Positions 9,185-26,166 of a DNA stretch of 43,132 bases are shown one piece after another. Below the pieces are notes generated by a model that saw nothing but the letters and a program-made list of their open reading frames with translations, was not told the origin of the DNA and searched no databases. Source of the stretch: a virus; IMG/VR virus record IMGVR_UViG_3300029616_000014, positions 1-43,132 of that record; one strand, 5' to 3'. The position numbers and the translations under genes were made by a program. Within the stretch, counting starts at the first letter, position 1. Every line of letters starts with the position of its first letter.

Positions 9185-10474
9185 ATGATAACGATCAACG
9201 CAAAATTCTCGCAGGAAATGCAATCTCTTGGCCTGATTGGTCGCGTGGGAGAGAACGCCAGCAGGCAGATTGTATTTGACTGCTCCGAGGTGCTGACCGA
9301 GTTTTCCGGCGCGTCCATCCTGTGCGTGCTGCGGCGATCCAAGGATGAGATGCCCTACACGGCGGATGTGACCATGAGCGGGACGAACGCGACACTGACG
9401 CTGACGGACACCGACCTTGCGGTTGCAGGATATCTGAACATTGAACTGCGCGCAATCAAAAATGGCGTGGTGTACAAATCATCCGTGTTCACGGGCACGG
9501 TGGCGCTATCCCTGTATGGCGACGCGGACAAGCCCGGCGAGGTTGTACGCGATGTTTTGGACAGGGTAGATGCTGCGCTCAACGCGGCAGAAGCGACGAA
9601 AAATCAGCTTGAATTGGCATTGGGCGATGTGACTACTGCTGTCGGCAGCGCAAACACGGCGGCGAACAATGCGCAGACCGTGGCCGATACTGTACAGACG
9701 AAGCTGGACAACGGCGACTTTGTTGGCGCAACTGGCCCTGCTGGCTCAACCGGCGCGGACGGCGTGTCGCCTACGGTGGCTGTAAGTAAAACGGGCAAGG
9801 TTGCTACCGTAACCATCACGGACAAGGACGGCGAACATACTTTCACGGTCAATGATGGCGCTGACGGTTCGGGCAGCGGTGACATGATGAAGGCCACCTA
9901 CGATTCAAACGGAAACGGCATTGTGGACAACGCTGAAAAGCTGGAAGGGCACGCCGCGTCCTACTTTGCGCAGGCCACACACTCCCACGCAATTGCGGAC
10001 GTGAACGGGCTGCAGGCAGCGCTGAACGCCACGGGCGACATGAAAAAGAGCGTATACGACGCGGACGGGGACGGGGTGGTGGACAACGCCCAAAAGCTGG
10101 ACGGCAAGACGGCGGCGCAGTTTGCGGCGGCGCAGCACAGCCATGACATGAGCCAGGTGAGCGGCCTAAGCAGCGCGCTGACGGGAAAAGCAAACGCTGC
10201 GCACAGCCATGAAATTGCAGATGTAAACGGACTGCAAGCCGCTTTGGACGACAAGATCAACACCACCTATACCCTGAGCATCACCGGCAACGCAATCGTA
10301 TTAACGCCCAGCAGCGGGGCCGCGCAGCAAATTACAATCCCCATTGCCACCGCCAGCGCCCTTGGCCTGGTAAAAATCGGCACGGGGCTTGCGATTGCCG
10401 CAGACGGGACGATATCCAACGCCTACTCCATGACTTATTCCAACGGCACGCTTGCTATCACCGGCCCGTCGTAA
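9185..10474 (+). CDS. Tail fibre protein with collagen-like triplets and phage fibre repeats
   Basis: ATG 9185 follows RBS aaggag. It has the collagen-like run GATGPAGSTGADGVS. The unit YD..G.G.VDNA.KL.G occurs twice, and HSH....V.GL..AL occurs three times, which is typical of the phage tail-fibre repeat. Confidence 0.8.
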   Translation: MITINAKFSQEMQSLGLIGRVGENASRQIVFDCSEVLTEFSGASILCVLRRSKDEMPYTADVTMSGTNATLTLTDTDLAVAGYLNIELRAIKNGVVYKSSVFTGTVALSLYGDADKPGEVVRDVLDRVDAALNAAEATKNQLELALGDVTTAVGSANTAANNAQTVADTVQTKLDNGDFVGATGPAGSTGADGVSPTVAVSKTGKVATVTITDKDGEHTFTVNDGADGSGSGDMMKATYDSNGNGIVDNAEKLEGHAASYFAQATHSHAIADVNGLQAALNATGDMKKSVYDADGDGVVDNAQKLDGKTAAQFAAAQHSHDMSQVSGLSSALTGKANAAHSHEIADVNGLQAALDDKINTTYTLSITGNAIVLTPSSGAAQQITIPIATASALGLVKIGTGLAIAADGTISNAYSMTYSNGTLAITGPS

Positions 10475-10486
10475 GGGGGGAAGCAT

Positions 10487-11329
10487 ATGGCCTTTACCTT
10501 CAACGGCAGCGCTCCTTCTATAGTAACTTACAACGGCCAAAGCGTAACGAAGATCACCTATAATGGCGTAGCTGTCTGGAACGCCATCTCCATTTCCGCG
10601 CCGAGCAACCTGCGGGTCAACGGCAGCACCAGCAGCACCAGCTCCGCCTGTAAGCTGACCTGGAAGGCGGCCACCCTCAGCGGCGCAACGGGAACAATTA
10701 CCTATTATATCTACAAAAACGGCTCTCAGGTGGCCACAACCACAAGCACCAGCTACACGTTCAGCACGTCCACGATCACCGGCTGGAGCGGCGTTTCCCT
10801 CAAGGTTCGAGCCTATAACAGCAGCGCAGGCTACAGCGCGTATACCAGCGCCGTAACCTTTACCTATAGGGTTTCCAGCACAAGGGTGACAGTATCAGCC
10901 AGCAAGTATGCTACGACGGACAACTCGTCCTTCGCAAACAGCGGCGGCACCAGCTGCATTGTGGGACGCTCCACGAAGGACAAGCCTGTCGGCACGGCGA
11001 TGAAGTTCAACGCGCCCAGCGGCGGATGGTCGCAATTTAGCAAGGCCGTTTTGCATGTGCAGAGAACAGGTGGCAGCGCGAGCGCGACGGTTCGGGTTGG
11101 TAAGCTGGATGTAGCATATTCTACCACGCTGTACACGACGGAGTTTTATTACGGGAACTACGACACGTCAATTGGCTCGGCGAGCGCGTCCGCGGCGACA
11201 AGCTGGTTCTCGCTCGATATTTCCTCGGCGCTACCGTCCGGCAGCGGAGAGCTGGGCATTACGCTCACCTCGACGAACGCCTATGCGGCTGTGGACGGAA
11301 CAAACGCCTATATCCAACTGTCGGCATAA
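10487..11329 (+). CDS. Receptor-binding/tail accessory protein with FN3-like domain
   Basis: 280 aa. The segment APSNLRVNGSTSSTSSACKLTWKAATLSGATGTITYYIYKNGSQV..TSYTFS reads as a fibronectin type III module. Confidence 0.5.
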   Translation: MAFTFNGSAPSIVTYNGQSVTKITYNGVAVWNAISISAPSNLRVNGSTSSTSSACKLTWKAATLSGATGTITYYIYKNGSQVATTTSTSYTFSTSTITGWSGVSLKVRAYNSSAGYSAYTSAVTFTYRVSSTRVTVSASKYATTDNSSFANSGGTSCIVGRSTKDKPVGTAMKFNAPSGGWSQFSKAVLHVQRTGGSASATVRVGKLDVAYSTTLYTTEFYYGNYDTSIGSASASAATSWFSLDISSALPSGSGELGITLTSTNAYAAVDGTNAYIQLSA

Positions 11330-11341
11330 TTGAAAGGAAAA

Positions 11342-12223
11342 ATGATTGTGAACGAAAAAACGCTTAAAATCATCGAGGCCGCGAAATCCCAGCTTGGCAA
11401 CCCCTATGTATTCGGCATGTGGGGGCGGGAATGCACGCCCTCCGTGCGCCGCCAGTATGCTGGCTATAACCCCAGCCACAAGAGCGCCATCTTCAAGGCG
11501 TGCCCCGTGCTGAGCGGCAAACAGCCCAATTGCGACGGCTGCAAGTGGCAGGGCAAGCTGGCCTTTGACTGCCGGGGCTTTATCTATTGGTGCATCTTCC
11601 AGGGCTACGGCTTTAAGCTCAAGGGCGGCGGCTGCACCAGTCAGTGGGGCTACAAGGTCAACTGGGCGCAGCAGGGCGAAATTGCCGATATGCCCGACCT
11701 GGTGTGCTGCGTGTACCAGTATCGCGGCGGAAAATTCCAGCATACCGGTATCCATATCGGCGGCGGCAAGGTGATCCATTGTTCCGCTGGCGTACAGTGG
11801 GGCGATACGTCCGATAAGGCATGGACGCATTACGCCATTCCGGCAGGGCTGTACACGGCGGAGGAAATCGCGGCGGCGGGAAAGCCCGATACCAGTAAGC
11901 CAACGGAGGGCGTTGTATTTAATCTCAGGCGCGGCAGTAAGGGTGCGGATGTAACCAAGCTCCAAACCACCCTCAACGCCCTGGGATACGACTGCGGCAC
12001 TGCTGATGGCATCTTCGGCGCGAAGACCGAGGCCGCCGTGCGCAATTTCCAGCGCGACCACAGCCTGACCGTGGACGGCATCGCCGGTAAGGCCACGCAG
12101 GCGGCGCTGTATGCGGCTGAGGATACGCCCAAGCCCACCTATACCGTCACCCTGCGCAACGTGCCGCAGGCGGACGCAATCGCGCTTACGGCCAAGTACG
12201 CGGGCGAGATGCTCAAAGAGTGA
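11342..12223 (+). CDS. Endolysin: NlpC/P60 cysteine peptidase + PG_binding_1 domain
   Basis: Catalytic Cys context AFDCRGFIYWC and His context HTGIHIGGGKVIHCS. The C-terminal segment GSKGADVTKLQTTLNALGYDCGTADGIFGAKTEAAVRNFQRDHSLTVDGIAG is a peptidoglycan-binding repeat. Confidence 0.9.
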   Translation: MIVNEKTLKIIEAAKSQLGNPYVFGMWGRECTPSVRRQYAGYNPSHKSAIFKACPVLSGKQPNCDGCKWQGKLAFDCRGFIYWCIFQGYGFKLKGGGCTSQWGYKVNWAQQGEIADMPDLVCCVYQYRGGKFQHTGIHIGGGKVIHCSAGVQWGDTSDKAWTHYAIPAGLYTAEEIAAAGKPDTSKPTEGVVFNLRRGSKGADVTKLQTTLNALGYDCGTADGIFGAKTEAAVRNFQRDHSLTVDGIAGKATQAALYAAEDTPKPTYTVTLRNVPQADAIALTAKYAGEMLKE

Positions 12224-12509: not shown

Positions 12510-12758
12510 ATGAACAAGATCGACTGGAAGCGTAAGCTCACGTCCCGAAAGTTTTGGATGGCTATTTCGAGTTTTGTCGCCATGCTGGTTGTGGCGTTTG
12601 GCGGCTCCGAAAGTCAGGCTACGCAGATTACAGCCATGATCATGGCCGGTGCTGCCGTGGTCGCCTACATCATCGGCGAGGGTCTGGCCGACGCGTCCGC
12701 CGCAGGCACTTTCGGCACGGAACAGCCTGTTGAAAAACCGCCCGAAGACCTGGGCTGA
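12510..12758 (+). CDS. Holin (two-TM, phiLC3/LL-H-like)
   Basis: 82 aa with RBS gaagggag. Start MNKIDWKRKLTSRKFW, then two TM helices (MAISSFVAMLVVAF and ITAMIMAGAAVVAYIIG). Confidence 0.75.
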   Translation: MNKIDWKRKLTSRKFWMAISSFVAMLVVAFGGSESQATQITAMIMAGAAVVAYIIGEGLADASAAGTFGTEQPVEKPPEDLG

Positions 12759-12772
12759 AAGGGGGGATTGCC

Positions 12773-13756
12773 ATGGCTGGTACGATGAGCGCGGCTGATG
12801 CGCTGAAAAAGCTGCTTGAGCAGTACAACCAGACTTCCTCTTATGTTCCCAAGACCGCTGACCAGATCAGGCAGCAGGCACAGGGCGAATATCAGAGCTA
12901 CTACGACCAACTGAGGCTTGCCGCCCAGCAGGCGCAGGCGCGCAACGACCTTGCATTGCAGCAGCAGCGCGAGGGCTTGCAGCGGACGTATGACAAGCAG
13001 CGCGAGGCCAGCCAGAAGGAATACGAAAACGCCTATTCCAGGGCTGACCGGCAGCAGTTGTCACGCGGCATGCAGCGCTCCAGCTACACGGCGCAGGTGC
13101 TGGCGAATCTCACCCAGGAGGGCGCGGAAGCGCAGCAGGAGCTGTGGGATGCGCAGGGCGCGGCTGAGGGGAACATCGACGCGCAGCGGACGCAGCTTGC
13201 GGCGCAGTTGGCTGACCAGTTATCGCAGTACAGCGCCAGCGAAGCGGCTGACGTGCTGGCGAGAATCAAGCAGCTTGAGGACCAGGAGTATGACCGCGGC
13301 CGTGAAAACGACCAGTACAAGAATTCCCTGTCTGCGCAGATCTATCAGTTCCTTTACCAGGGCGAGCAGGATAAGATTGCTCAGGATCAGTGGCAGAAGG
13401 AATTTGACGAAAACGTGCGCCAGTGGAACGCGCAGTACGGCAGCAAGGGGTCTGGCGGCGGCGGCGGAAACAACTACAACACCAACAAGGATACCACCGG
13501 CAACGGCGGGAACCAGTACACCGATGATACCTTCCTGTCCGACATGAGCCAGGACAGGGCCATTACTAAAACCTCTGCCGGTTTGCCTATGCCTGATCTT
13601 GGCCTCTTTCCTGACCGAATCAACAGCCTGGGCGGGATCAACAGCGTTAAAAGCAAGCTGAACGAAGCATTGAAGAACAAAAGAAAGAAGAAAACCAGCA
13701 CCAACAACGGCGGCGGAGGCGGCGGTCGTTTCTCTCAGGCAATGGTAAGAGACTAA
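12773..13756 (+). CDS. Q-rich coiled-coil / Gly-rich putative internal virion protein
   Basis: 327 aa. Long Q/A/E coiled coil, GGGGG tracts and a basic tail (KNKRKKK). It lies directly upstream of the giant ORF. Confidence 0.45.
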   Translation: MAGTMSAADALKKLLEQYNQTSSYVPKTADQIRQQAQGEYQSYYDQLRLAAQQAQARNDLALQQQREGLQRTYDKQREASQKEYENAYSRADRQQLSRGMQRSSYTAQVLANLTQEGAEAQQELWDAQGAAEGNIDAQRTQLAAQLADQLSQYSASEAADVLARIKQLEDQEYDRGRENDQYKNSLSAQIYQFLYQGEQDKIAQDQWQKEFDENVRQWNAQYGSKGSGGGGGNNYNTNKDTTGNGGNQYTDDTFLSDMSQDRAITKTSAGLPMPDLGLFPDRINSLGGINSVKSKLNEALKNKRKKKTSTNNGGGGGGRFSQAMVRD

Positions 13757-13773: not shown

Positions 13774-16700
13774 ATGAGCCAGCTATATGATGACGAGAAG
13801 CAGAAAAAGCTGACTACCGTCTCGATGACGAGCAGCAAGCAGAAGCTCAAGCAGGTATTGCAGGAGCAGAAGCAAAAGGAGAAGAATCCTGTTCAGCGCA
13901 AGAACACGAAAATTGGCGCTTCGCAGTCTCCAAAATTTGTGAGCACTACCTTCATCAGTCCGGTGCAGCCTATTGTCCGCACGCAGCCGTCCTCGAACCT
14001 ACAGCGGCTTTTGGCGAAGGTTGAGACGGATAACAGCTGGTATTCCGGCAGCACGCCCACCAGAAGCGAGGCGGCGGCGCGTATCTACACGATATCGCAG
14101 ACTGACCCGGCGCGGGCAAGGAAGCTGAACCAGGCTTTTTCTCAACTGCAGCGTGATCCTTCCAGCCAGTTCTACAATCCATACGGCGCTGCCACGAACA
14201 AGGCCATCCAGGAGCTTGCAAACCTTGGCGTGGATATGAGCGGCGGCATTACGGAGGACTGGCTGGCGAAAAATAGCTGGCTCAAAGCCTACTATCGCAC
14301 CAGCGGCAACAGCGGCACTCCCCTTGCGCCCACCAAGAGCAGCACTGCCGAGCAGAATGCGGCGTACTACTACTATCAGATTCTCAAGGCGCAGGATACA
14401 ACCAATCAGGCAGAAGCCGAGTGGAAGGCCCTGCAGGAGGAGATCGGCTACTGGGCGAACCGCAAGGACCGCAATTACAGCGACGATCAGATCATCAGCA
14501 GGATTGACTGGTCTAAGTATAAGACGCTGGCCAGGATGGACGACGGCGCGGCAAGCGGCGTACCCCTGACGCTGAACAGCTCCATTGGCTACAGCCAGGA
14601 CGCGCTAAAGGGCGTGATCTGGGCGGCGCGCAACGGCAGCACCGGCAACCCGCTGGCTGACAGCGCGAAGGCCGTTTTGGGCGCGGGCAAGACCTGGCAG
14701 GAGGACAAGAGGATCAGCGCGAAGCTCGATCCCAGCAGCAAGGCGTACAGCCCGTACGCTGTCGGCAGCACGCTGGACGACGCGGCGCTGTACTTTGGCG
14801 TGGATTCCTTCAGCAAGGACTGGCTTGCAAACAACCGTAACATTCTGGCCGGCAACGACGCAACGGCCAAGAAAATGTATCAGACGGTGTACAATGCGGA
14901 GCAGACCACGCTGAAGGCGGAGCAGGAGCTGGACGAGCTGCACGCCAATATCGACCGCTATCTTGAATCGACCACTGACCCGGATCAGATTATGCGGATG
15001 ATTGACGGCGATTATAAGACGCTGGACAGCCTGGACGAGAGCATGCGGGATGGCAAGCTGATAGGCACGACCCGCGCGATCAACTACCGCAAGCAGGATA
15101 TCGAGTTTGAGGTGCGCCGTCGCTGTCTGGCCAAGAATACGCAGATCAACGGAGCGGACTATGTGGGCGCTGTGTGGAAGCTGCTGGGCCTGCCGGAGGT
15201 AAAAACCGAGGCCAGTTCGGCTGTGGGCGCTTCCCGCGATAACGCGATCAACGCTGGCGGCGCGACCATTGCGGACGCGGGCACGGACGAGGAAAAGACC
15301 GTATTTAAGACTGCGTACAGCAGCGATTTTGACAACTATCTGACGCAGATCAAGGGCGCGATGGATAGCGGCGTATCCGACCCGCAGGGCGGCTATGACT
15401 ACACGCTCAAGCGCGCTGACCAGTATGCGGCTGAAAACTACATGGACGCGATGGACACCGTTTTGACATACGAGGAAGCCCAGCAGGCCAAGGATGAAGC
15501 CATCAAAAAGCTGAACGACCTGGGCGTTGTCTACGATGAAGACGGCAACATCGACATGACCAACCGCAAGGGCAGCCTGATTGTGCCGGGCGCTGATACG
15601 GCGATGGCTGCTGCCGGGACGAGCGATGCGCCGAGGAAGCTGCGCAAGACCAGTGATGATACGGCTGATGAGATCGACATGCTGCGCAAGGAGATTGCCA
15701 GCGGTTACGGCAAGGATGAGAAGGGAAAGCGCGTAAAGCTGACGGATGAGGAAATCGAGCTAAAGCATTCTCAGCTGCAAGCGCTGCTTCATCCCGAAGC
15801 CATCACGGCAACGCAGAAGGAGATCAACCAGCTTTTGGCTGTGGTGGATGAAAGCACCGAGACCATGGAGCGCACGCAGAAGTCCTATGATAAAGCCAAT
15901 ATCACGCTGAAGAACATCACCGAGGGCTATGCGGTTGCCGACCGGATGCAGGCGCTGACCGGCGTGAAGGCCGGAGACAGCGATTCCACCCTGGCGCAGA
16001 TGACTTATCTGTTCAGCATTGCGCGCAACTATGAGCCGACCGAATATCGATCTGCCAACCTGTATGCGCTGGCCATGGACGGGCAGGGCGCGACCTACGA
16101 GGAAACGGCGGCGGCTGCCAAGCAGGGCATGGCGGAGAACAAGCAGATGATCGAGCAGATCAATTTTGCACTGGGCGAGCTGGAAAGCAAGGGCGCGCAT
16201 CTGCCGGATGACAAGATGGAAAACGTCAAGCGTTATGTCGCTGCGCTTGAGCGCGACGTGCAGGACGCTGAATATTTTCTTTTGCGGGAGAACGACGATT
16301 ACTACCAGGAATCGCAGGACGTAAGCAACGAGATTTTCGCGGCCTGGCAGGATTATAACGAGCTGAACCCGCTGGGCATGCTGAACCCATTTGCCGACCG
16401 GAAGGGCTATACGGCGCTGGATAACGTGGTGGCAATCCGCCTTGAACAGCTGCAAATGGAGGAAGCCAGCAAAACCATTGGGCGGAACCTGAAATCTGAC
16501 AAGGTGATCATGTCCACTGGCAACCCGGCGAAGGACGGTTATTACACAGAGGACATTAACCAGCTCAGCAAAAACGAGTGCATGACCTACCTGTACATTC
16601 GCGGCAAGGAGGGCGTGGACGCTGCGCAGGAATACTACGACCATTTGACCAACGCGGAGTACGGTGTAATCAACATGCGCCGCAATCTGGACTGGACGGC

Positions 16701-19700
16701 GAAGGCGCAGGAATTTGCGGATCAGAACGCTGTGACCGGCGCGCTTGCTTCCGCGCTGACCGTCATTGCTTCCCCTCTTACTGTGGGCGGCATGGTGGAA
16801 TCGATCAAGGCTGATGTGCTGGGGCAGGAGCTGAACCCCTACGCGCGCGGCTTTGTGTACGGCAACATGAGCGGCACGGCGCGTGCGACGGTCAAGGAGA
16901 ATATCTCCGAATCTGTCGGCGGCGGCGCGCGCGGCTGGCTGCTGGGTGCGCTGTATGACGCTTTGATGAGCTACGGCGATTCGATGGTAAGCAGCTACTT
17001 TATGGGCGACCTGGGCGCTGCTGCTGGTTCCGGCGCTGGCAAGCTGCTGGCAAAGACAGGGCTGACCGAGAATTATGTCAATCTCGCGTCCAAGGTGGTA
17101 TCTTCCTTTGTGACGGCTTCTGGCCAGGGCATGCAGGCGGTTGGCAACACCGTGATGGACGCAAAGCTGCGCGGCGCGACTGCGACCGAAAGGCGCGTAC
17201 TTGGCCTTGTTACCTTCCTGGCTGAGACCGCGACGGAAGCGATTGAGGTTGAGACCATCGATTCTGCCATTCACGGCGGCGCTGAACGGGAATTCAAAGA
17301 CACGTTCAAGAAGCTGCTGTTCAACATGTTCAACGAGGGCGCGGGCGAGGGCGTATCCGAATTGGTGGAGGGCATGGCCGACAAGGTTGTGATGGATTAC
17401 AAGTCCAACTGGGCTGAATTCGTACAGCGCTATATTGACGAGGGCATGACCAAGAAGCAGGCCGAAGACGCAGCCTGGAAGGAGATCCTGTGGAACGCAG
17501 CGGAAGCGGCGGCTGTTGGCGGTATCTCTGGCGGCCTTGGCACCGGCCTGGGCTATGTACAGGGCCGTATCTTTGGCGATGGCAGCCAGACGCAGGACGC
17601 TGTGCAGCCAACTGCCGAGACCGTGCAGCAGACGCAGCAGACCGCGCAGGAAACCGTCCAGCAGACCGCACAAGAGCAGACCCAGCAGGAAGCCCCGACG
17701 ATTGCGCAGGAGACGCAGAACGCCGAGGTGGAGAATGCTGCGCCTGAGACCGCAAAAGCCGCCCAAACGCTAAATACAAAGGAAGAAACGCAGCCCTTTG
17801 ACACGGGCGAACGGCTGACGCAGTATGAGGTAAATGAAAAGACCGTGCGGCAGGTGACGGCGCTGACTGCATCCCTGGAGGCGGACGAGGCCAGCCAGAC
17901 GGCGACCATCGGCGCGGCGCTGTTGGGAGATAACGCGACCCCGCAGGAAACGGCCTTTGCCTCCGCGGCGGCGCAGCACATGACCGATACCCTGGGCAGT
18001 GACGCGGCTGTGCGGTTTACCCGCGACGTGCTGCTGCTGGACAGCGACACCAACGGCGTGCGCGCGGCGCTGACTGTTGCGGCGCTGAGCAAGGGAGGGA
18101 ACGCCAGCCAGGTTGCGCAGCGTATGGCGCAGGAGGGCGTAACGGCTGAGGGCATTCAGGAGCTCAAGGCGGCGGCTGACCTCGATGTGCAGGACGCGAA
18201 CGTGACCGCGCAGATGCAGCAGACCGTGCAGGAGAACCAGGTGGCAAAGCGCACGGCGCAGCTGATTGGCGACGGCGCACTGAAAGCCGTACAGCCCTAC
18301 GAGACGGCGGTTGCCCAGGCAAAAAGCGTATTGCGCCAGGCTCAGGGCGAATTGCGCAGGCAGGTAAAGCGCCGGGAAGGGCTTGGGCAGAATCTCCTAT
18401 CTTTACAGGATCAGATCAACAGCGGCACGGCAACCCCGCAGCTGCTTGATACCTTCCGTTCGACCGTCAAGGACATCGAAGGCCAGATCAAGGTTGTGAA
18501 CGAGTACACCCAGCGCGTGGCCAACGCCGAGCAATCGATGCACGACGCGCAGAACCAACTTGACACTGTACGCGACGAAACCCTGCGTCGGGTACGCCAG
18601 CAGGCGCAGCAGGACGTGGCCGACATGCAGGCGCAGCAGCTTGCGGAGCAGGAGGCGGCGAAGGCTGAACAGGCGCAGCAGGCCGAAGCACAGGAAAAGA
18701 CCGGCTATCAGAAGAAGCAGTTTATCCCCTATGATGGCCCTGTCCCGCAGACCGTTGACAACGTGCAGCAGGAAACCGTCGCGATTGACGATGCAAGCTA
18801 TGCGCAGGTGCAGCGGATTGTGGAGGAGGCGCAGGCGGAGGATGAAACGAAACTTAGCGTGCGCAGCATAGTCAAGAGTGCGTTGCGCGCTGCGTTTGGA
18901 AGCCGATTCGACCAAACGCAGGTAACGGTGGACAACGTGCAGTTTGACGGACAGCCGTATACCGTGACGCTGTTCAAGAATCTGATCAACAAGGTTGTTT
19001 CTGACCCTGGGATGACAGTTGATAAACTTTCGGTATTAGGAAACGTCGAACAGGTGTTGAAAAACGCTAATTACCTGACAAGCTCTGATGTTGATAGGAG
19101 CCACCAGAACAAGGATGATGTAATTCGGTATGATTATTTGAATACACCTGTCCGGATAAACGGCGTAGATCAGAATGTAAGATTCACTATTGAGGCTTAT
19201 GATGATCATAACAAGGCGAAAACTTATATGCTAACGGACATAGAAATGACGCCCCCCGCCTCACTGCCCACCACCGGTTACGTACCGGCGCACACAGGAG
19301 ACGGTTTGCTCTCACCTACCGGTCACGTACCGGCGGCGCAGAGCGAGGCGTCATCTTCTACTAATATATTAGCAGACAACGCCGAAAATGTCAATACTGA
19401 AAATATTTCTAATTTGGAATCGCTGAACGATGCGAATGTGCCGCCTGCTACGCCTATGCAGGATAACGCGGATACGCAGAACGATTCCGGGGAGAAATAC
19501 CGCCAGTTTGGCACGCAGACCGCGCAATCGACGGATGCACTGTTCCAGGAGACGCGCGACTATCTGCTGCACAACAGCGTATACGAGGCTGATTCCAACA
19601 CTGAACAGATTGACCGGGCGATTGACTGGGTGCGTGGACAAGCTACGTCGCATGATCCTGCCGGTTACTTTACGGCCAAGTCCGCTGTGCTGGATCCTTC

Positions 19701-22125
19701 CTTCGATTACGCTTCCGCTGACGGACAGGCGCGGATGCTGACGGTCATGCAGATGTCTACCCTGATGGGCGACACGCAGGGGCAGGTGCAGATTGCAGAT
19801 ATCTTCAACCGCCAAGGCACGGTGCTGGCACAGGCATTGCAGGCGCGCAAAATTTTCTATATGATGTCCCCTGCCGCGCAGGCAGCTTCCATTCAGAAGA
19901 TTGCCAACAATCTGAGCCAGGAGAACGGCGTAACCGTTACTGTTCCGCAGGATACGCTTAATCGCCTGAGCCAGGCCAAGACCATGGACGAAGCGCAGAA
20001 GATTCGCAACCAGATTGTAAAGGAAATGTATCAGCAGTTGCCCGCGAACTGGAAATCCCGCCTGAACGGCCTGCGCTACTTTTCCATGCTGGCCAACCCG
20101 AGAACGCATATCCGCAATATCCTTGGCAATACCATTATGCAGGGTACGGCCTATGCGCGAGACGAAATCAACGCGGCCTTGGAGCACTTTTTCCTGCCAC
20201 AGGAGGAGCGCACAAAGGCATTCAAGACGAAGAAGGAATACAGGGACGCGGCGAAGGCGCTGTATACGGAGTTTTCGAGCCTGTTTGACGGGAATACCGG
20301 CAAGTACAACCCGGAGATGAACAGAAGGAACTTCAATACGCAGTGGCTGCAAAAGCTGGCAGACCTGAACACGAACCTGCTGGACAAGGAAGACACCATT
20401 GCGATGAGCCGGAACTTCCTTCATTATTTGGCCGGATTTATGCAGGCGCGCGGCTGGGACGTGAACAATCTGACGGACGCGCAGAAGCATGAAGCCGTGC
20501 AGTACGCCTTCACCAATGCCGAAAAGAACGTGTACCATCAGGCATCCAAGCTGGCTGAATGGCTGAACAAACTGGGCAGAGACAAGGATTCCAGCGTATT
20601 TGACAAGCTCGGACATATGGTGATCGAAGGCGTGCTGCCGTTCAAGAAAACGCCTATCAACATTTTGAAAACGGGCGTTGAGTACAGCCCCATTGGATTG
20701 ATCAATTCCCTGACCCGCGGGCTTTACCAGATGAACCAGTACCGGCAGACGAACGGGCAGAAGGGAATTTCCACGGCGCAGTTTTTGCAGAACCTTTCTT
20801 CCGGCCTGACCGGCGCCGGTCTGATGGGCGTGGGCGCGATGATGATGGCAAACGGCCTGCTGCGCGTAGGCTTTAAGGACAAAGACCCGGATGATGAATA
20901 CGCCAGACTGACCGGCAGCCAGGAATTTTCCATTGAACTGTTTGGCTACTCCTACACCATCGACTGGACGGCGCCTGCCAGCATTCCGCTGTTTATGGGC
21001 GCGTCGATGTACAAGGAGATTGAGAACAGAGACGAGGGGCTGACCTGGGGGAACGCATTCGACGTGTTCATGTCTACGATCTCCGCAATGGCTGAACCCA
21101 TGCTGAACATGACGATGCTTGACGGCGTGAATAGCACAATTCAGTCTGTTGCTTACGCCAATGCGACCGGTTCTTCTGTTGGAGATATCATCATACAATC
21201 GCTGCTCAACCTGTCTACGCAGCTTGTGCCTACAAGCCTTGGCGCTGTTGCGCGCACCGTTGATCCTGTACGCCGAAAGACCTACGCGGACAAGAACCTG
21301 AACATACCGACTTGGCTGCAATACCCATGGGAGCGCGTGCAGAACAAACTGCCAGGGCTGTCGCAGCTTAATATGCCCTACCTGAACGCATGGGGCGAAG
21401 AAGACAGGGAAGATAACCTGCTGATGCGCATCTTTGAAAACTTCCTGTCTCCCGGCTATGTATCCAAGACGGAAGCTGACAGCGTAGAGACCGAATTGCG
21501 CGACATCTCCGTCCGCACGGGTACGAATCTGATTCCTGATCTGCCAAATCAGAGTTTTTCTTTTAATAACGAAAAGATCAACCTGACGGCAGAACAATAT
21601 GAGCAGTACGTCAAGACGCGCGGCAGCCTGATGCACACGGAACTGGAACGGCTGTTTGCGACGGATGAATACAAGGCCATGAGCTTGGGCGCACAGGCAT
21701 CGTGCATTAAGAATATCCAAACGTGGGCAGACGAACAGGGAAAGGTGTCGGTATATCCGGAAAAAACGATTGTACCCAAGTGGATGGATACGAAAGACAT
21801 TGTTCCGGCTGTAATTGAGCGCCGCGCGAGTGAGGACAGGCAGGCGTACCAGAATGAAGCGTATTCCAATATCCAGAACGCCATTGACAACGACGACGCG
21901 GCGACTGCCCGCGATTGGGTGTACGCGCTGAATCAGGCAGGCGTTGAGAACTCAGATATCAAGCAGAAAATGACGACCCTGTATAAATCCGAATACCAGT
22001 ACGCGATCAGAAGCGGCGACCGGGAGACCGCCCGGAAGATCGAATGCATGCTGCTGGCCATGGACATTGGATACAAGGCCAAGAACTTTATCAGCTGGGA
22101 GAAGGACGCTTACAAGGAGGAATGA
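13774..22125 (+). CDS. Giant virion-associated (ejection/pilot, polyvalent-type) protein, 2783 aa
   Basis: Uninterrupted 8352-nt ORF with RBS cggaggt. It has Q-rich linkers (nt about 17580-17760) and hydrophobic segments (GALASALTVIASPLTVGGMV; LTGAGLMGVGAMMMANGLL near nt 20803-20862). No catalytic motif is recognisable by eye. Confidence 0.8.
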   Translation: MSQLYDDEKQKKLTTVSMTSSKQKLKQVLQEQKQKEKNPVQRKNTKIGASQSPKFVSTTFISPVQPIVRTQPSSNLQRLLAKVETDNSWYSGSTPTRSEAAARIYTISQTDPARARKLNQAFSQLQRDPSSQFYNPYGAATNKAIQELANLGVDMSGGITEDWLAKNSWLKAYYRTSGNSGTPLAPTKSSTAEQNAAYYYYQILKAQDTTNQAEAEWKALQEEIGYWANRKDRNYSDDQIISRIDWSKYKTLARMDDGAASGVPLTLNSSIGYSQDALKGVIWAARNGSTGNPLADSAKAVLGAGKTWQEDKRISAKLDPSSKAYSPYAVGSTLDDAALYFGVDSFSKDWLANNRNILAGNDATAKKMYQTVYNAEQTTLKAEQELDELHANIDRYLESTTDPDQIMRMIDGDYKTLDSLDESMRDGKLIGTTRAINYRKQDIEFEVRRRCLAKNTQINGADYVGAVWKLLGLPEVKTEASSAVGASRDNAINAGGATIADAGTDEEKTVFKTAYSSDFDNYLTQIKGAMDSGVSDPQGGYDYTLKRADQYAAENYMDAMDTVLTYEEAQQAKDEAIKKLNDLGVVYDEDGNIDMTNRKGSLIVPGADTAMAAAGTSDAPRKLRKTSDDTADEIDMLRKEIASGYGKDEKGKRVKLTDEEIELKHSQLQALLHPEAITATQKEINQLLAVVDESTETMERTQKSYDKANITLKNITEGYAVADRMQALTGVKAGDSDSTLAQMTYLFSIARNYEPTEYRSANLYALAMDGQGATYEETAAAAKQGMAENKQMIEQINFALGELESKGAHLPDDKMENVKRYVAALERDVQDAEYFLLRENDDYYQESQDVSNEIFAAWQDYNELNPLGMLNPFADRKGYTALDNVVAIRLEQLQMEEASKTIGRNLKSDKVIMSTGNPAKDGYYTEDINQLSKNECMTYLYIRGKEGVDAAQEYYDHLTNAEYGVINMRRNLDWTAKAQEFADQNAVTGALASALTVIASPLTVGGMVESIKADVLGQELNPYARGFVYGNMSGTARATVKENISESVGGGARGWLLGALYDALMSYGDSMVSSYFMGDLGAAAGSGAGKLLAKTGLTENYVNLASKVVSSFVTASGQGMQAVGNTVMDAKLRGATATERRVLGLVTFLAETATEAIEVETIDSAIHGGAEREFKDTFKKLLFNMFNEGAGEGVSELVEGMADKVVMDYKSNWAEFVQRYIDEGMTKKQAEDAAWKEILWNAAEAAAVGGISGGLGTGLGYVQGRIFGDGSQTQDAVQPTAETVQQTQQTAQETVQQTAQEQTQQEAPTIAQETQNAEVENAAPETAKAAQTLNTKEETQPFDTGERLTQYEVNEKTVRQVTALTASLEADEASQTATIGAALLGDNATPQETAFASAAAQHMTDTLGSDAAVRFTRDVLLLDSDTNGVRAALTVAALSKGGNASQVAQRMAQEGVTAEGIQELKAAADLDVQDANVTAQMQQTVQENQVAKRTAQLIGDGALKAVQPYETAVAQAKSVLRQAQGELRRQVKRREGLGQNLLSLQDQINSGTATPQLLDTFRSTVKDIEGQIKVVNEYTQRVANAEQSMHDAQNQLDTVRDETLRRVRQQAQQDVADMQAQQLAEQEAAKAEQAQQAEAQEKTGYQKKQFIPYDGPVPQTVDNVQQETVAIDDASYAQVQRIVEEAQAEDETKLSVRSIVKSALRAAFGSRFDQTQVTVDNVQFDGQPYTVTLFKNLINKVVSDPGMTVDKLSVLGNVEQVLKNANYLTSSDVDRSHQNKDDVIRYDYLNTPVRINGVDQNVRFTIEAYDDHNKAKTYMLTDIEMTPPASLPTTGYVPAHTGDGLLSPTGHVPAAQSEASSSTNILADNAENVNTENISNLESLNDANVPPATPMQDNADTQNDSGEKYRQFGTQTAQSTDALFQETRDYLLHNSVYEADSNTEQIDRAIDWVRGQATSHDPAGYFTAKSAVLDPSFDYASADGQARMLTVMQMSTLMGDTQGQVQIADIFNRQGTVLAQALQARKIFYMMSPAAQAASIQKIANNLSQENGVTVTVPQDTLNRLSQAKTMDEAQKIRNQIVKEMYQQLPANWKSRLNGLRYFSMLANPRTHIRNILGNTIMQGTAYARDEINAALEHFFLPQEERTKAFKTKKEYRDAAKALYTEFSSLFDGNTGKYNPEMNRRNFNTQWLQKLADLNTNLLDKEDTIAMSRNFLHYLAGFMQARGWDVNNLTDAQKHEAVQYAFTNAEKNVYHQASKLAEWLNKLGRDKDSSVFDKLGHMVIEGVLPFKKTPINILKTGVEYSPIGLINSLTRGLYQMNQYRQTNGQKGISTAQFLQNLSSGLTGAGLMGVGAMMMANGLLRVGFKDKDPDDEYARLTGSQEFSIELFGYSYTIDWTAPASIPLFMGASMYKEIENRDEGLTWGNAFDVFMSTISAMAEPMLNMTMLDGVNSTIQSVAYANATGSSVGDIIIQSLLNLSTQLVPTSLGAVARTVDPVRRKTYADKNLNIPTWLQYPWERVQNKLPGLSQLNMPYLNAWGEEDREDNLLMRIFENFLSPGYVSKTEADSVETELRDISVRTGTNLIPDLPNQSFSFNNEKINLTAEQYEQYVKTRGSLMHTELERLFATDEYKAMSLGAQASCIKNIQTWADEQGKVSVYPEKTIVPKWMDTKDIVPAVIERRASEDRQAYQNEAYSNIQNAIDNDDAATARDWVYALNQAGVENSDIKQKMTTLYKSEYQYAIRSGDRETARKIECMLLAMDIGYKAKNFISWEKDAYKEE

Positions 22126-22130
22126 TAACC

Positions 22131-22325
22131 ATGCGTTTTGACCGCATCCATCAATCGCGCATCGACGCGGCGGAGGCAGCCTACGGCCTGACGGACGACG
22201 AGCGCGAGGTGCTGAGCCTGTCCCGGCGCGGGAAATCCGTTATCGCCATCGGCATGGCGCTGGGCATGAGCACCAGAACCGTCAGCCGACGCAGAGCAGA
22301 CATCATGCGCAAGATCAACATCTGA
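22131..22325 (+). CDS. GerE/LuxR-type HTH protein (64 aa)
   Basis: ATG 22131 follows ggagga. LTDDEREVLSLSRRGKSVIAIGMALGMSTRTVSRRRADIMRKI is a textbook GerE-family HTH. Confidence 0.8.
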   Translation: MRFDRIHQSRIDAAEAAYGLTDDEREVLSLSRRGKSVIAIGMALGMSTRTVSRRRADIMRKINI

Positions 22326-22329
22326 CAAC

Positions 22330-22351
22330 GCCCCCTTCGGGGGGCTTTTTT
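22330..22351 (+). terminator. Rho-independent terminator closing the late operon
   Basis: gccccc-ttcg-gggggc followed by tttttt. Confidence 0.9.
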
Positions 22352-22366
22352 ATTTTGCAAAAATGG

Positions 22367-22395
22367 TTGACAAATGGACGTAAAGATGGTATCAT
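22367..22395 (+). promoter_or_regulatory. Near-consensus sigma70/sigmaA promoter
   Basis: TTGACA (22367-22372), 17-nt spacer, TATCAT (22390-22395). Confidence 0.65.
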
Positions 22396-22396
22396 A

Positions 22397-22526
22397 ACAG
22401 CGTCGGGAGATAATCCCGCTGTCAGGAAGCAATTCCTGTGGATTGAAACGAAAACAGAAATGGAAACGATCATGATCTCATGGTCGCATCCGCAAAGAAG
22501 CCTTGCACTGCGCAGGGCTTTTTTGT
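22397..22526 (+). ncRNA. Candidate about 125-nt terminated transcript (sRNA or riboswitch-like leader)
   Basis: Two 5' hairpins: acagc..ggga-gataa-tccc..gctgt, and caggaa-GCAA-ttcctg. An A-rich stretch with repeated gaaac follows. The terminator is gccttgc-actgc-gcagggc + tttttt (22500-22524). Confidence 0.35.
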
Positions 22527-22631
22527 TGCCCAAATGGCGCGAAACTGGCGCGAATGCGGCGCGTTTTCACCCGCGTTTTGTGCGACAATCAGCACACCGG
22601 GAAACCCGGAATAACACAAGGGAGGAATATC

Positions 22632-23207
22632 ATGGACATTGAATACACTCGCAGAGGCCAAGGCAATCTGAATACTGTGCTTGGCGCAATCGGCACGGCT
22701 GGCGCCGTTGGCATTCTGAACGGCGGACTGGGCGGCCTTTTTGGCGGCGCGCGCAATGTGAACGTCAACGGCGAATGCAGCGAAAATCACCTGGTTGATC
22801 GCTATGATGCTTCTCAGCAGGCAAAAATCGCCCAGCTTGAGGCCGAAATTAAGCTGCGCGACAGCAACATCTACACCGATCAGAAGAGCCTTGCGCTGTA
22901 CCAGTACATTGACGGGCAGATCAAGGAGATTCGCGGCGAACTGTCCGATCAGCGCGTACACAACCAGCGCACCGAGGATAGCTTTGTCCTGGCGCGTCAG
23001 GATCTGGCTACCGTTAAGGCCGAGCTGGACGGCAAGATCAAGATGGAAGCCGAAAAGCGCTGCTGCGGCGATAACTCCATCGTGACATACGCAAACGCCA
23101 CCTTCTACCCCAAACAGGTTGCTGACGTGACCGTAGGCACTGCCACCACCGCGCAGAGCACCTACAATCCGCTGCCCAAGTGCGGCGATTGCTGCGGCAA
23201 CAACTGA
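22632..23207 (+). CDS. Hypothetical glycine-zipper / coiled-coil / Cys-rich-tail protein (191 aa)
   Basis: RBS agggagga. N-terminus LGAIGTAGAVGILNGGLGGLFGG, central coiled coil, C-terminus KCGDCCGNN. Hairpin terminators lie on both sides of the gene. Confidence 0.7.
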   Translation: MDIEYTRRGQGNLNTVLGAIGTAGAVGILNGGLGGLFGGARNVNVNGECSENHLVDRYDASQQAKIAQLEAEIKLRDSNIYTDQKSLALYQYIDGQIKEIRGELSDQRVHNQRTEDSFVLARQDLATVKAELDGKIKMEAEKRCCGDNSIVTYANATFYPKQVADVTVGTATTAQSTYNPLPKCGDCCGNN

Positions 23208-23214
23208 CAAAAGC

Positions 23215-23249
23215 GGGAGGGCTGGCACTGACCGGCTCTCTCCGTTTTT
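23215..23249 (+). terminator. Terminator-like hairpin after the glycine-zipper gene
   Basis: gggagggctgg-cactga-ccggctctctc (11 bp including G-U pairs), then cg + ttttt. Confidence 0.5.
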
Positions 23250-23268
23250 CTGATTGGAGGATTACGTA

Positions 23269-23616
23269 ATGGTTAGTATTGAGACCATAGAGCGCGGCCT
23301 TGCGCAGTATATCGACGCTGAATTGCTGCCTAAATTGCCGCAGGACGGCCTTAAAGGCTTTGGCGTGCGGTCAATGGCTACGGCTATTGTAATGCGCGGG
23401 GGACGGCTCCTGAGCGCCTACGCGACCTGGAAGCCTGCGCAGATCATGGGCGCTATTACGCCTGACGGCACAGTTGATATAGATTTTTTGCGCGATGTTT
23501 TCAAGGGCGGCATCCAGCAGGGCGGCCAGAAAATTGATTTGCCGCTGGGTGTGTCGCTGAGAATTACGCCTGAGGATGTAGATCACATATACAGCTACAT
23601 CATGCAGGCGCAGTAA
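23269..23616 (+). CDS. Hypothetical protein (115 aa)
   Basis: ATG 23269 lies 7 nt after ggagga. No recognisable motif. Confidence 0.6.
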   Translation: MVSIETIERGLAQYIDAELLPKLPQDGLKGFGVRSMATAIVMRGGRLLSAYATWKPAQIMGAITPDGTVDIDFLRDVFKGGIQQGGQKIDLPLGVSLRITPEDVDHIYSYIMQAQ

Positions 23617-24295: not shown

Positions 24296-25456
24296 TCAGG
24301 CAGTCGGTCGTTTCATCGCGTTTGCAGCTTCTCGTGCATCGCTGTCATCGGGGTGCACATATCTGTCCATCATCTTAGTACTTGACCAGCGCATGATCTT
24401 TTGGAGCACCTGTGGCGGGGTGTGTTCGTCTACAGCGTGAACCGTAGCGGTTGTGTGTCGGCAGGAATAAGGCGTGAGACGGCGCGTAATGCCAGCAGCT
24501 TTCAGCGATTTGTAATACTTTTTGTAAAAGGCCATATCGGTCATAGGGTATAGACGGCCATCCTCTCCGGCCAGCGCCATTGCATCCTCAAGCACAGGGC
24601 AAATGTCATCTGGCAGAAACACGGCAGACTTTTTTCGCGTGTCCGTTTTGATGCCTACGCCGACAATCTCCCTGTTTGGCAGGTCGATCATGGATACGGT
24701 CAGCTTGAGCATTTCGCCGGTCATCATGCCCGTGTATATCATAATCAGCGGAATATAGACGTTTGTATCGCCACGATCATACAACGCCCACAGGAGCCGT
24801 TGTTCTTCGTCCGTAAACGGCTCTCTTTCTTTTTCGTTGATCGCTGGCAAATCTATAAACGACGGCAGGTCTTTGCTACACCATCCATCCGCAGCGGCCA
24901 GATTGAACAAATGGGCAAGCAACTGCTTTGCGTCCCTGGCTGGATAATAAGTAGGGCATGTGGCGTTTACTGCGTTGCGCAGGTCAGCTACCGTGATTGC
25001 GTTGACAGGAACAATGCTGATTGACTTTAGCTTGCTCCAAGCGATTTTGTATGCCGTGCGTTTGCTCTCCGACAGTTTTTCCATTTCATTGCCGTAGTAG
25101 CTTTCCCAATAAAAGGACAGCGGCGGCGCTTTTTTCTTTTCCGCGCCAGACAGCAAGGCCGGACAATAGTTGAGCGCATCGGTTCTGGTGGCAAAACCGC
25201 CCTTGGTTTTTTCCATGCGCACTTTTTCGCCGCTCGCATCTGTATAACAGACCACGACACGCGCCGTCCAGGTCTTCCCGCGCTTGAAGGCGGTTCCCGT
25301 CCCATTGCTGCGCCGCTTTACTCCGCGCTTTTGCGCCTGCCTCATCCCGCACCAGGGGCAGAACGGCGCGCCGTCCGGGATTGCGCCCTTGCATTTTTTG
25401 CATTCCATGGCTTTTTTCTCCATTTTTATCGCATCATCTGTGATTTGCGTGATCAC
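24296..25456 (-). CDS. int: Tyrosine integrase with N-terminal zinc ribbon and arm-binding domain
   Basis: C-terminal segment RHTTATVH...KIMRWSSTKMMDRYVH fits the R..H..Y catalytic pattern. N-terminal segment CKKCKGAIPDGAPFCPWCG is a zinc ribbon. ATG 25408 (MECKKC, RBS ggaga) is the more likely start. Confidence 0.9.
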   Translation of the reverse strand: MITQITDDAIKMEKKAMECKKCKGAIPDGAPFCPWCGMRQAQKRGVKRRSNGTGTAFKRGKTWTARVVVCYTDASGEKVRMEKTKGGFATRTDALNYCPALLSGAEKKKAPPLSFYWESYYGNEMEKLSESKRTAYKIAWSKLKSISIVPVNAITVADLRNAVNATCPTYYPARDAKQLLAHLFNLAAADGWCSKDLPSFIDLPAINEKEREPFTDEEQRLLWALYDRGDTNVYIPLIMIYTGMMTGEMLKLTVSMIDLPNREIVGVGIKTDTRKKSAVFLPDDICPVLEDAMALAGEDGRLYPMTDMAFYKKYYKSLKAAGITRRLTPYSCRHTTATVHAVDEHTPPQVLQKIMRWSSTKMMDRYVHPDDSDAREAANAMKRPTA

Positions 25457-25477
25457 TTTTTTATCAGATGTGACGGA

Positions 25478-26023
25478 TTATCCATTTATGGATATTGGGT
25501 GAATTAACCCGCCTTCCCGACGCCAGCCTGTAACGCGGTGGATAAAGCCGTATCTGGGGTCAAGCAGATCGAACATCAGCAGCAGGCCGAAGACAAAGGA
25601 CATGATGATAATTGCAACGGTCATCACGCTGATCTTGTGCCGCAGCTTTTTAATCGTGCCTTCCAGCGCTTCTATCCTGTCCTGGTCGTCCCCGTGTGAT
25701 TTCTCCTTTTCATCCTTTAAGTACTGCACATTATGCCTTAAATTGGCTATCAGGTCGCTGGTGTGCTGCTGCGGCGTGTAATCGTGTATCACGGTTGGCT
25801 CGTGCCGGATGCCCGCCAGCTCGTCCAGGGATCCGTCGGCAGATCGCACCAGGGAGGCCACGGTCTGAAACTGCGGCGTGGTCTGTCCGTCCAGGATGCG
25901 CGTGATCGTCTGCCCGCTTACGCCGGACACGGCTTCCCATTGTTTGATTGTCCAATTTTTGCTGCTGCGCAATCCGGTCAGATAGCCCGCAATGTCCATG
26001 CGATTGTCGTTTGTCTCATCCAT
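25478..26023 (-). CDS. Membrane-anchored XRE-type HTH protein (181 aa)
   Basis: Start MDETNDN follows RBS gaggggaa. HTH segment WTIKQWEAVSGVSGQTITRILDG, then a coiled coil, then C-terminal TM ISVMTVAIIIMSFVFGLLLMFDLL. Confidence 0.7.
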   Translation of the reverse strand: MDETNDNRMDIAGYLTGLRSSKNWTIKQWEAVSGVSGQTITRILDGQTTPQFQTVASLVRSADGSLDELAGIRHEPTVIHDYTPQQHTSDLIANLRHNVQYLKDEKEKSHGDDQDRIEALEGTIKKLRHKISVMTVAIIIMSFVFGLLLMFDLLDPRYGFIHRVTGWRREGGLIHPISING

Positions 26024-26166
26024 GATACTGATTCCCCTCACCTGTGATGTATTTTGTCCCATGGCTGATAGCGCAAAGGCCCGTATCTGATAAAAAGATG
26101 ATCTTGCAAATCATGCATGCTTGCGTATGGTGTAAGTATCGAATAAAACAGAAGGAGGCTTACACC

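Follow-up and report, generated by a model that had tools for sequence, protein, structure and literature searches.

The Giant Gene and Its Locus

The window analyzed here covers positions 1 to 43,132 of IMG/VR virus record IMGVR_UViG_3300029616_000014, and its 43,132 nucleotides (nt), judged by their gene content, are the genome of a temperate, short-tailed, podovirus-like phage of Clostridia. An initial annotation had singled out one open reading frame (ORF) of 2783 amino acids (aa) that takes up about one fifth of this genome, and we have followed up this giant gene and its product, the giant protein. The ORF lies at 13774-22125 on the + strand, begins with ATG, and comprises 2783 codons and 8352 nt, or 19.4% of the window; both its length and its share of the genome had been correctly described. 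A GGAGG ribosome-binding site is found 9 nt before the ATG, and the stop codon of the preceding gene lies 17 nt upstream. The computed mass of the giant protein is 307 kDa, with an isoelectric point (pI) of 4.9.

That the ORF is a real gene, and neither a chance frame nor an assembly chimera, follows from its full-length homologues, its codon composition, and its mode of selection. The homologue search for the gene product gave 231 sequences. Proteins of 2515-2886 aa (most of them 2760-2811 aa) with matches to the N-core as well as to the C-module, both defined below, fall into 37 clusters at 90% identity; they are 72-96% identical to the giant protein and come from many contigs in independent assemblies. 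The GC content at third codon positions (GC3), read in frame, is 0.70-0.79. Pairwise ratios of nonsynonymous to synonymous substitution rates (dN/dS) against two relatives are 0.11-0.27 in every module of the gene, and purifying selection acts across all of them. We note that two long antisense ORFs, of 668 aa (15760-17766, - strand) and 783 aa (19369-21720, - strand), lie inside the giant gene; they are most likely a non-coding shadow of the GC-rich sense frame, which gene callers could mis-call.

Relatives of the giant protein are encoded on 39 viral contigs in IMG/VR, which range from 8 to 47 kb (41-47 kb for the longest), and in metagenome-assembled genomes (MAGs) of Clostridia, including Anaeromassilibacillus, Eubacteriales, and Oscillospiraceae among others, in keeping with the earlier assignment to a Clostridia phage. 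A tblastn search with the whole protein gave no match in 72,556 plasmids and none in 50,697 GenBank phage records, and the whole protein likewise had no match in PHROGs, NCBIfam, or the sequences of the PDB.

The giant gene is the last large gene of the structural and lysis late operon. Library scans of the window proteins identify, all on the + strand, a terminase (TerL, 573-1994), a P22/SU10-like portal (1991-3808), and a capsid protein (MCP, 4668-5897); the same strand also encodes a 121-aa SU10-like adaptor-like protein, tail proteins of 504 and 351 aa, and a PTR-repeat fiber. An endolysin with NlpC/P60 and PG_binding domains (11330-12223, + strand), an 82-aa holin-like ORF with two transmembrane segments (12510-12758, + strand), and a 327-aa protein (12773-13756, + strand) complete the series up to the giant gene. 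On the 3' side, a 64-aa gene of the GerE/LuxR helix-turn-helix type (22131-22325, + strand), which is kept in this place in close relatives, is the last gene of the operon, and a terminator-like intrinsic hairpin, GCCCCCTTCGGGGGGC (22330-22345), followed by a T-run closes it (22330-22352, + strand). The position first assigned to the gene, after the lysis cassette and a Q/G-rich 327-aa protein at the end of the late operon, therefore stands. Between 11000 and 19091 the + strand has no promoter-like site, and a terminator is found only after 22325; a near-consensus, TG-extended, sigma-70-like promoter lies at 22367-22395 (+ strand), and the integrase and repressor are encoded on the opposite strand at 24296-26062. 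The gene order endolysin - DUF7934 - giant gene - integrase is kept among the loci of relatives. No genes for a tail tube, sheath, chaperone, or tape measure were found in the window, which, taken with the P22/SU10-like portal, agrees with the earlier description of the phage as one that lacks a tail tube.

The 327-aa protein has a Q-rich coiled coil and a G-rich basic tail and matches DUF7934 in Pfam (E 1.3e-12). Its gene is directly upstream of the giant gene in 37 of the 39 IMG/VR loci and in the MAG loci L001-L003 and L006, and DUF7934 is a near-obligatory partner gene of the giant gene. The protein may be a co-packaged ejection protein or a chaperone; apart from it, no obvious further ejection-protein genes are present in the window. 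In another locus (L013), a 523-aa protein upstream of a gene bearing the C-module resembles DUF7934 in composition and has no BLAST similarity to DUF7934 or to the N-core.

Three Modules of the Giant Protein

Comparison with 240 homologues resolves the giant protein into three evolutionary units. Residues ~80-1648 form the N-core, residues 1649-1881 a central cassette, and residues 1882-2783 the C-module. The sole catalogued domain of the protein is LPD3 of Pfam, at aa 1704-1813 in the cassette, and about 90% of its residues have no counterpart in the domain, family, and structure catalogues that were searched.

The N-core is preceded by a poorly conserved, basic, S/K/Q-rich low-complexity tail (aa 1-80, pI 10.3; 13774-14013, + strand), recognized by low alignment occupancy and a predicted local distance difference test (pLDDT) score <50. 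The first part of the N-core, N1 (aa 81-600; 14014-15573, + strand), contains a globular all-alpha core at aa ~90-450 that is the best-conserved part of the giant protein and in which dozens of W, Y, D, E, R, and N positions are invariant, for example, in the motifs RxDRN[YL]SD[DE]E and YSPY. A phmmer search against 1.84 billion representatives returned N1 in 377 clusters at 50% identity (340 of them at E<=1e-10), and in the best 150 of the 377 it stands at the N-terminus of proteins of 2,400-4,550 aa, save for shorter, probably fragmentary entries; a further search with the N1 alignment as the query returned 8 fragments only. N1 is the signature N-terminal domain of the family. It has no match in the PDB, Pfam, PHROGs, or NCBIfam, and its profile found nothing below E 0.09 among PDB sequences. 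In one distant relative (P0108), N1 appears to be partly duplicated, with overlapping N1 matches at aa 5-336 and 329-717.

N1 also holds the only [AG]x4GK[ST] match of the protein, AVLGAGKT (aa 300-307, nt 14671-14694), which had been flagged at the outset as possibly fortuitous. In a set of 20 diverse homologues, 19 retain G303 and 18 retain G305, K306 is N in 11 and K in 6, and T307 varies; moreover, the segment sits in an all-helical model with no beta-strand before it. We regard the resemblance to a Walker A motif as fortuitous because the lysine is mostly replaced by Asn, the threonine is variable, and the setting is all-helical. A P-loop NTPase was rejected as a candidate on the same ground, that the GK[ST] of Walker A is not conserved.

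N2 (aa 601-1270; 15574-17583, + strand) begins with long helices and continues as a G/A-rich helical region of mild hydrophobicity at aa ~985-1260; it is common to 119 of the 120 homologues listed and is modeled by AlphaFold2 as all helix. A Q-rich linker (aa ~1271-1330) and then N3, a Q/A/E-rich helical region, end the N-core (17584-18717, + strand). The linker carries a weak 12/24-nt tandem repeat at 17618-17688, and the Q-rich stretch pointed out in the initial annotation is found within it at aa 1285-1306 (nt 17626-17691). Every peptide quoted there is present in the translation: GALASALTVIASPLTVGGMV in the hydrophobic region of N2 (aa 989-1008), ANPRTHIRNILGN at aa 2107, PFKKTPINILK at aa 2289, and LTGAGLMGVGAMMMANGLL at aa 2345-2363, the last of which begins at nt 20806, not at 20803 as had been given, and ends at 20862.

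The C-module of the giant protein, which we call type A (19417-22122, + strand), is all-alpha and has its conserved core at aa ~1995-2665. Strongly conserved in the module are the motifs NPRTHIRNxxGN and LPFKKTPxNILKRGxEYSPxG, the glycine-rich helix SGLTGxG...G at aa 2345-2363, and the motifs EPxxNxSML and NKxPGLS. Many of its 243 homologues are the C-terminus of polyvalent proteins of 1,000-1,550 aa, the N-terminal parts of which carry MuF_C, ART-PolyVal, PBECR1/3, LPD3, or peptidase M23, and 1530-aa polyvalent proteins bearing the module occupy the equivalent slot in other temperate phages. Type A itself has no match in Pfam, PHROGs, NCBIfam, or the PDB, and its profile found nothing below E 0.09 among PDB sequences.

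Exchange of Cassettes and C-Modules between Near-Identical Phages

The central cassette (18718-19416, + strand) consists of LPD3 and a P/T/N-rich linker. LPD3 (PF18798; nt 18883-19212) scores 36.6 bits (E 5.7e-9) with the whole protein and 43.2 bits (E 5.3e-11) with the isolated cassette, where the Pfam gathering cutoff is 27 bits. The cassette is compositionally foreign: its GC content is 0.494 and its GC3 0.554, as against a GC3 of 0.73-0.79 in the core. Against the sister genome L014, its synonymous divergence (dS) is 0.91, roughly 5-fold higher than the 0.15-0.18 of the flanks, which suggests that alleles are exchanged even among LPD3 cassettes.

The units are delimited at the DNA level by two sister genomes. 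L015 is collinear with the window, its collinearity with the N-core running to 18716, save for a clean in-frame gap of 702 nt (234 codons) at 18717-19417 that coincides exactly with the cassette. The collinearity of L014 extends to 19441 and resumes at 22114, 12 nt ahead of the stop codon, with an unrelated C-module lying between these breakpoints. This second module, type B, has 1,200 aa, replaces type A as a block in sister phages, begins with a HEAGH metallopeptidase motif, and contains LPD38; it finds matches by tblastn (E 1e-5 to 1e-18) in the cultured Ralstonia phage GP4, Bacillus phage Page, and Vibrio podophages. In order of motifs judged by eye (NP..., A.Q..T.D, PF..P.N), type A could pass for a divergent LPD38, and this candidate was dropped when hhalign gave the core no support; the only match between type A and the LPD38-type module was one of 79 terminal residues at 56% probability.

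Among proteins whose N-cores are >90% identical to that of the giant protein, the cassette takes five forms. It may be LPD3, of a ~260-aa length class; it may be absent, with a linker of only 27-47 aa in its place; or it may be a 255-aa insert with RelA/SpoT-like motifs, YGYRGLHV...VEVQLTT (P0021-P0025, P0036, and P0037), a 282- or 381-aa insert with no assigned domain (the 282-aa one being of the P0047 type), or a 403-aa insert with ddrB-ParB. The 255-aa form (YGYRGLHVTW...GVEVQLTT) is recognized by its motif only, with no Pfam match at E<=0.1; an alarmone synthetase delivered by injection is one possibility. More distant relatives carry 200-1,400 aa at the cassette position, including ART-PolyVal, Zeta toxin/AAA_33, MuF_C (a PBECR RNase), and methyltransferase domains. 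Cassette and C-module assort independently, as LPD3 occurs with either C-module and the 282-aa insert does likewise. The BLASTP module map, the cassette length classes, and the DNA breakpoints agree that the exchanges are in frame and take place at low-complexity linkers; no direct repeats flank the cassette besides low-complexity repeats of Q codons. The mapping of conserved and swapped modules against other phages, proposed with the initial annotation, thus revealed swapping that is both real and precise.

Predicted Structure and Likeness to Internal Virion Proteins

With AlphaFold2 we modeled aa 61-1260 and the C-module (883 aa), the two stretches on either side of aa 1261-1900. Both models are almost purely helical, with a pLDDT of 77 for the N-terminal one (~90 for N1) and a pLDDT of 80 and a predicted TM-score (pTM) of 0.64 for the C-module. 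In Foldseek searches of the PDB, which includes structures of the T7 core, the best E-values were 0.14 for the C-module and 1.0 for the N-terminal model, with none <0.1; the matches were generic helical repeat proteins and transporters and were dismissed as noise.

Searched against the predicted viral structures of BFVD, the C-module matches fragments of uncharacterized giant proteins of gut viromes annotated as ART-PolyVal, LPD3, MuF_C, or nuclease (E 1e-39 to 1e-27). More distant matches (E ~1e-10 to 1e-11) are to proteins annotated as internal virion proteins, from the Synechococcus phages S-RIP1, S-CBP3, and S-CBP2 and from a podovirus of Pelagibacter. The cyanopodovirus likeness, a comparison of predicted structures, extends over ~900 columns with a TM-score of 0.3-0.45 and 12-14% identity. 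The only tblastn match of the C-module in GenBank phages is a weak one (E 0.3) to a 1,356-aa gene of Synechococcus phage WH11-B, and this gene follows a gp14-like gene and a gene in the gp15 position and lies just before the tail fiber, which is the position of T7 gp16. The alignment keeps the motifs F-x-KTP-x-N and Y-[ST]-P-x-G. The fold-level resemblance, as modeled, would support a role of the C-module inside the virion. We note in passing that the 859-aa protein in the gp15 position of WH11-B (L011, 3606-6185) has a weak C-terminal match to a Cell Wall Hydrolase (Hydrolase_2) below the Pfam cutoff, so that wall-degrading activity in this phage may reside on a different core protein than in T7.

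Relation to Known Giant Phage Proteins

The evidence supports placing the giant protein among the phage-type polyvalent proteins, as the initial annotation had proposed. The definition and genomic logic of this class were set out by Iyer, Burroughs, Anand, de Souza, and Aravind in 2017 (PMC5512222), and LPD3 and LPD38 are among its virion-context domains (PMC5512222). The giant gene resembles the genes of that class in its place among late and virion genes of a phage with portal and terminase, in its LPD domain (LPD3, above the gathering threshold), and in its mosaicism; relatives of the N-core carry ART-PolyVal, ddrB-ParB, MuF_C/PBECR, a Zeta toxin kinase, LPD38, and methyltransferase, and some combine ART, Zeta toxin, and LPD38 or similar sets. 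It differs in having no metallopeptidase and in that about 90% of the protein is made up of two modules outside the Pfam LPD models, a distinction drawn by Pfam models only, since to our knowledge some of the LPDs of Iyer et al., for example, the phage-only LPD4, have no Pfam model, and N1 or the C-module may correspond to one of these.

The closest published counterpart is found in Clostridium clostridioforme LM41, the closed genome of which contains the ~41-kb prophages phi1 and phi4, each with an 8-kb ORF at its 3' end (PMC11318856). The only annotation of this ORF was a similarity to LPD3, and its product was suggested to be possibly a polyvalent protein; spontaneous release of podovirus-like particles was described as well, and the paper is without module analysis or virion proteomics (PMC11318856). 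By this published description, the window is similar in being a temperate podovirus-like Clostridia phage with an ORF of ~20% of the genome at the end of the late region. A second counterpart is gp47 of the Stx phage phi24B, a 2811-aa protein with LPD5, LPD1, LPD38, and MuF-C domains. Mass spectrometry found gp47 to be abundant in virions; it was not seen in the cryo-electron microscopy map and was proposed to be an ejection protein that acts as conduit or effector (bioRxiv 10.64898/2026.04.10.717836). The likeness, again by description, lies in the giant size, the podovirus setting, and the LPD38 module of the sister phages of the window; unlike gp47, the giant protein has no match to LPD38 (PF18857; none at E<=1), LPD1, LPD5, or MuF-C, and the host of phi24B is Gram-negative. 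It also differs from giants with LPD38 in having no HExxH motif, where the type-B module of its relatives has HEAGH; neither HExxH nor HxxEH occurs in the 2783 aa, as had been stated for the former.

Other comparisons are more distant. The C-module resembles in predicted fold, and shares a pair of motifs with, the proteins that marine T7-like podoviruses (S-RIP1, S-CBP3, and WH11-B of Synechococcus and phages of Pelagibacter) encode at the place of T7 gp16. To T7 gp14, gp15, and gp16 themselves, no significant similarity was detected by profile or in the Foldseek search of the PDB; gp16 has an N-terminal lytic transglycosylase, and Pfam detects no SLT or lysozyme domain in the giant protein. 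P1 DarB is a head-internal, injected antirestriction protein (literature in PMC5512222). The likeness to DarB, to the "DarB-like antirestriction protein" of Ralstonia GP4, and to the giants of Bacillus Page runs through the type-B module of the sister phages, and in contrast the giant protein's own modules are unmatched in the 50,697 GenBank phage records save for the weak WH11-B match (E 0.3) and include no methylase-helicase dyad. N4 gp50, a virion RNA polymerase of ~380 kDa, is packed in the head of a podovirus and ejected, with few copies per virion; the giant protein is comparable in size and setting and differs in that no RNA polymerase domain or fold was detected in it. A tape-measure protein was rejected, given the lack of tail tube, sheath, and chaperone genes and the position of the giant gene after the lysis cassette. 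An 8-kb giant gene of this type was thus already noticed in the LM41 prophages; new with respect to the literature and catalogues searched are the N1/N-core and the type-A C-module as defined units with a wide distribution, the DUF7934 partnership, and the exact exchange of cassette and C-module between near-identical phages.

Proposed Role and Alternatives

We consider it probable that the giant protein is a polyvalent protein carried inside the virion and ejected along with the DNA, in which a conserved delivery chassis holds a plug-in slot for effectors. A few copies would be packed in the capsid. The T7 core, the P22 E-proteins, and the N4 virion RNA polymerase each amount to ~1-2 MDa per virion, and by comparison with them, 1-2 MDa would correspond to roughly 4-6 copies of a 307-kDa protein. 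On infection, the largely alpha-helical protein would leave by way of the portal and nozzle, threaded out together with the DNA. The N-core and C-module would serve incorporation into the head, crossing of the cell wall and membrane, and possibly formation or extension of a conduit for DNA, and the cassette would act as a strain-specific early effector, probably against host defence.

Several points weigh against this proposal. Packaging and injection are what we infer from the logic of the polyvalent class (PMC5512222), the resemblance of the C-module to internal virion proteins, and the precedent of phi24B gp47. The giant protein has a single catalogued domain, LPD3, and the strict sense of "polyvalent," several disparate activities in one polypeptide, may not apply to its own allele. 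The C-module has no significant sequence or profile similarity to LPD38-type modules, and profiles of the N-core and C-module compared with T7 gp14, gp15, and gp16 gave nothing significant. The link to cyanophages is one made by Foldseek against predicted structures of long all-helical proteins; the score of the C-module profile with the cyanophage protein was not significant, and we therefore speak of a resemblance at the level of fold and not of established homology. Hydrophobic, possibly membrane-inserting segments had been described earlier and are indeed present, although they are only marginal as transmembrane helices, so that a membrane role gains little from them: the first (aa 986-1008) reaches a Kyte-Doolittle value of 1.69 over 19 aa, and the second, which is the conserved glycine-rich helix at aa 2345-2363, reaches ~1.38 by hand calculation, below the cutoff of 1.4 used in the hydropathy scan. 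Finally, sister phages without any cassette exist, so the cassette is dispensable and an essential role, if there is one, falls to the conserved modules.

A bolder version, which we put forward tentatively and hold to be rather less likely than its failure, is that the N-core, the C-module, and DUF7934 together constitute a one-polypeptide ejectosome, of a kind not described before, of podoviruses that infect Gram-positive hosts. N1, with its many invariant W, Y, D, and E residues, would then be a domain of a new type that binds or cuts the cell wall. The membrane conduit would be formed by the glycine-rich helices together with the C-module, and the middle slot, flanked by low-complexity sequence, would be a site of effector exchange among gut phages. 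If true, the system would be for phages what polymorphic-toxin cassettes are elsewhere, and it might serve as a chassis for delivering proteins.

Of the competing explanations, the one that fares best is that the giant protein is purely structural, an ejectosome or conduit that does in a single polypeptide and a Gram-positive host what gp14-16 do in T7 or gp7/20/16 in P22, with LPD3 and the other small inserts as spacers. In its favor, the cassette can be missing whereas both large modules are kept, the giant protein is all-alpha like known ejection proteins, its C-module has a fold like that of internal virion proteins in the gp16 position of cyanopodoviruses, and there is little else in the window besides DUF7934 that could act in ejection. 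The slot of relatives, however, holds enzymatic effector domains (ART, Zeta toxin, ddrB-ParB, MuF_C/PBECR, and methyltransferase), and the cassette of the giant protein is foreign in composition and turns over faster than its flanks, which is the signature of an arms-race payload and not of a spacer. We therefore judge this explanation unlikely for the giant protein as a whole. It overlaps our proposal of a virion-internal protein with an effector slot, differing on the role of the cassette only, and is plausible for alleles without a cassette.

It is a good deal less probable that the giant gene is a moron at the end of the prophage, encoding a large toxin, a superinfection-exclusion protein, or a surface protein that benefits the lysogen and is not part of the virion. 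The gene does lie at the prophage end adjoining the integrase, one gene away from the variable region bounded by promoter and terminator at 22367-23610, and the polymorphism of its cassette recalls polymorphic toxins. Yet it is tightly packed in the orientation of the late and lysis genes, with a 17-nt gap and a ribosome-binding site, there is no promoter-like site before it, and the terminator comes after the next small gene. Moreover, no signal peptide, LXG, Rhs, or cell-wall-anchor domain is present in the protein, the N-core is invariably borne by phages with genomes of ~41-47 kb, and LPD3 and LPD38 belong to the virion context (PMC5512222).

Very improbable, in our estimation, is an enzyme carried in the virion for early expression, such as a highly diverged RNA polymerase like those of N4 or crAss-like phages. 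A mass of 307 kDa in a podovirus recalls N4 gp50, which the initial annotation had named among its examples; nevertheless, Pfam, PHROGs, and NCBIfam detect no RNA polymerase domain, in line with the lack of polymerase motifs reported initially, and the 1200-aa N-terminal and 883-aa C-terminal models, which cover the protein on either side of aa 1261-1900, have no polymerase among their PDB matches. Both modeled regions are nearly all helix and have no palm-like beta core. For a temperate phage with its own repressor and a sigma-70-like promoter, the host RNA polymerase suffices. That a sequencing or assembly error has fused ordinary genes, a suspicion that only the unusual length could raise and that the initial annotation had named as a way for its view to fail, has next to no probability given the purifying selection in all modules, the hundreds of independent contigs (ENA, Logan, JGI, and NCBI) that carry unbroken homologues of 2500-4500 aa, and the similar 8-kb ORF in the closed LM41 genome (PMC11318856).

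In a widespread group of temperate podoviruses that infect gut Clostridia, giant late genes of this type account for about one fifth of the genome, and the in-frame swaps between near-identical members of this group are a natural experiment that could separate delivery chassis from payload cassettes. LPD3, the RelA/SpoT-like insert, ddrB-ParB, ART, and Zeta toxin are candidate anti-defence effectors, and the conserved N1 and C modules merit family definitions of their own. Should packaging and ejection prove true, the giant protein would show how a short-tailed phage moves a protein of 300 kDa into a Gram-positive cell.

Other Variable Regions and a Possible Intein

Besides the swapped modules, two regions of the window have no DNA similarity to the sister genomes L014 and L015, which are elsewhere 84-97% identical to it. 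The first, 10168-11355, contains the distal fiber and a 280-aa gene and probably relates to host range. The second, 22567-23610, which may be a slot for morons, follows the late terminator; a 234-aa ORF within it combines a G-rich hydrophobic stretch with a C-terminus rich in Cys. The 981-aa DUF927 primase/helicase gene (34884-37829, + strand) has matches to LAGLIDADG_3 and Hom_end at aa 511-583 and matches DUF927 in two stretches, a pattern suggestive of an intein that carries a homing endonuclease and interrupts the DUF927 replication gene.

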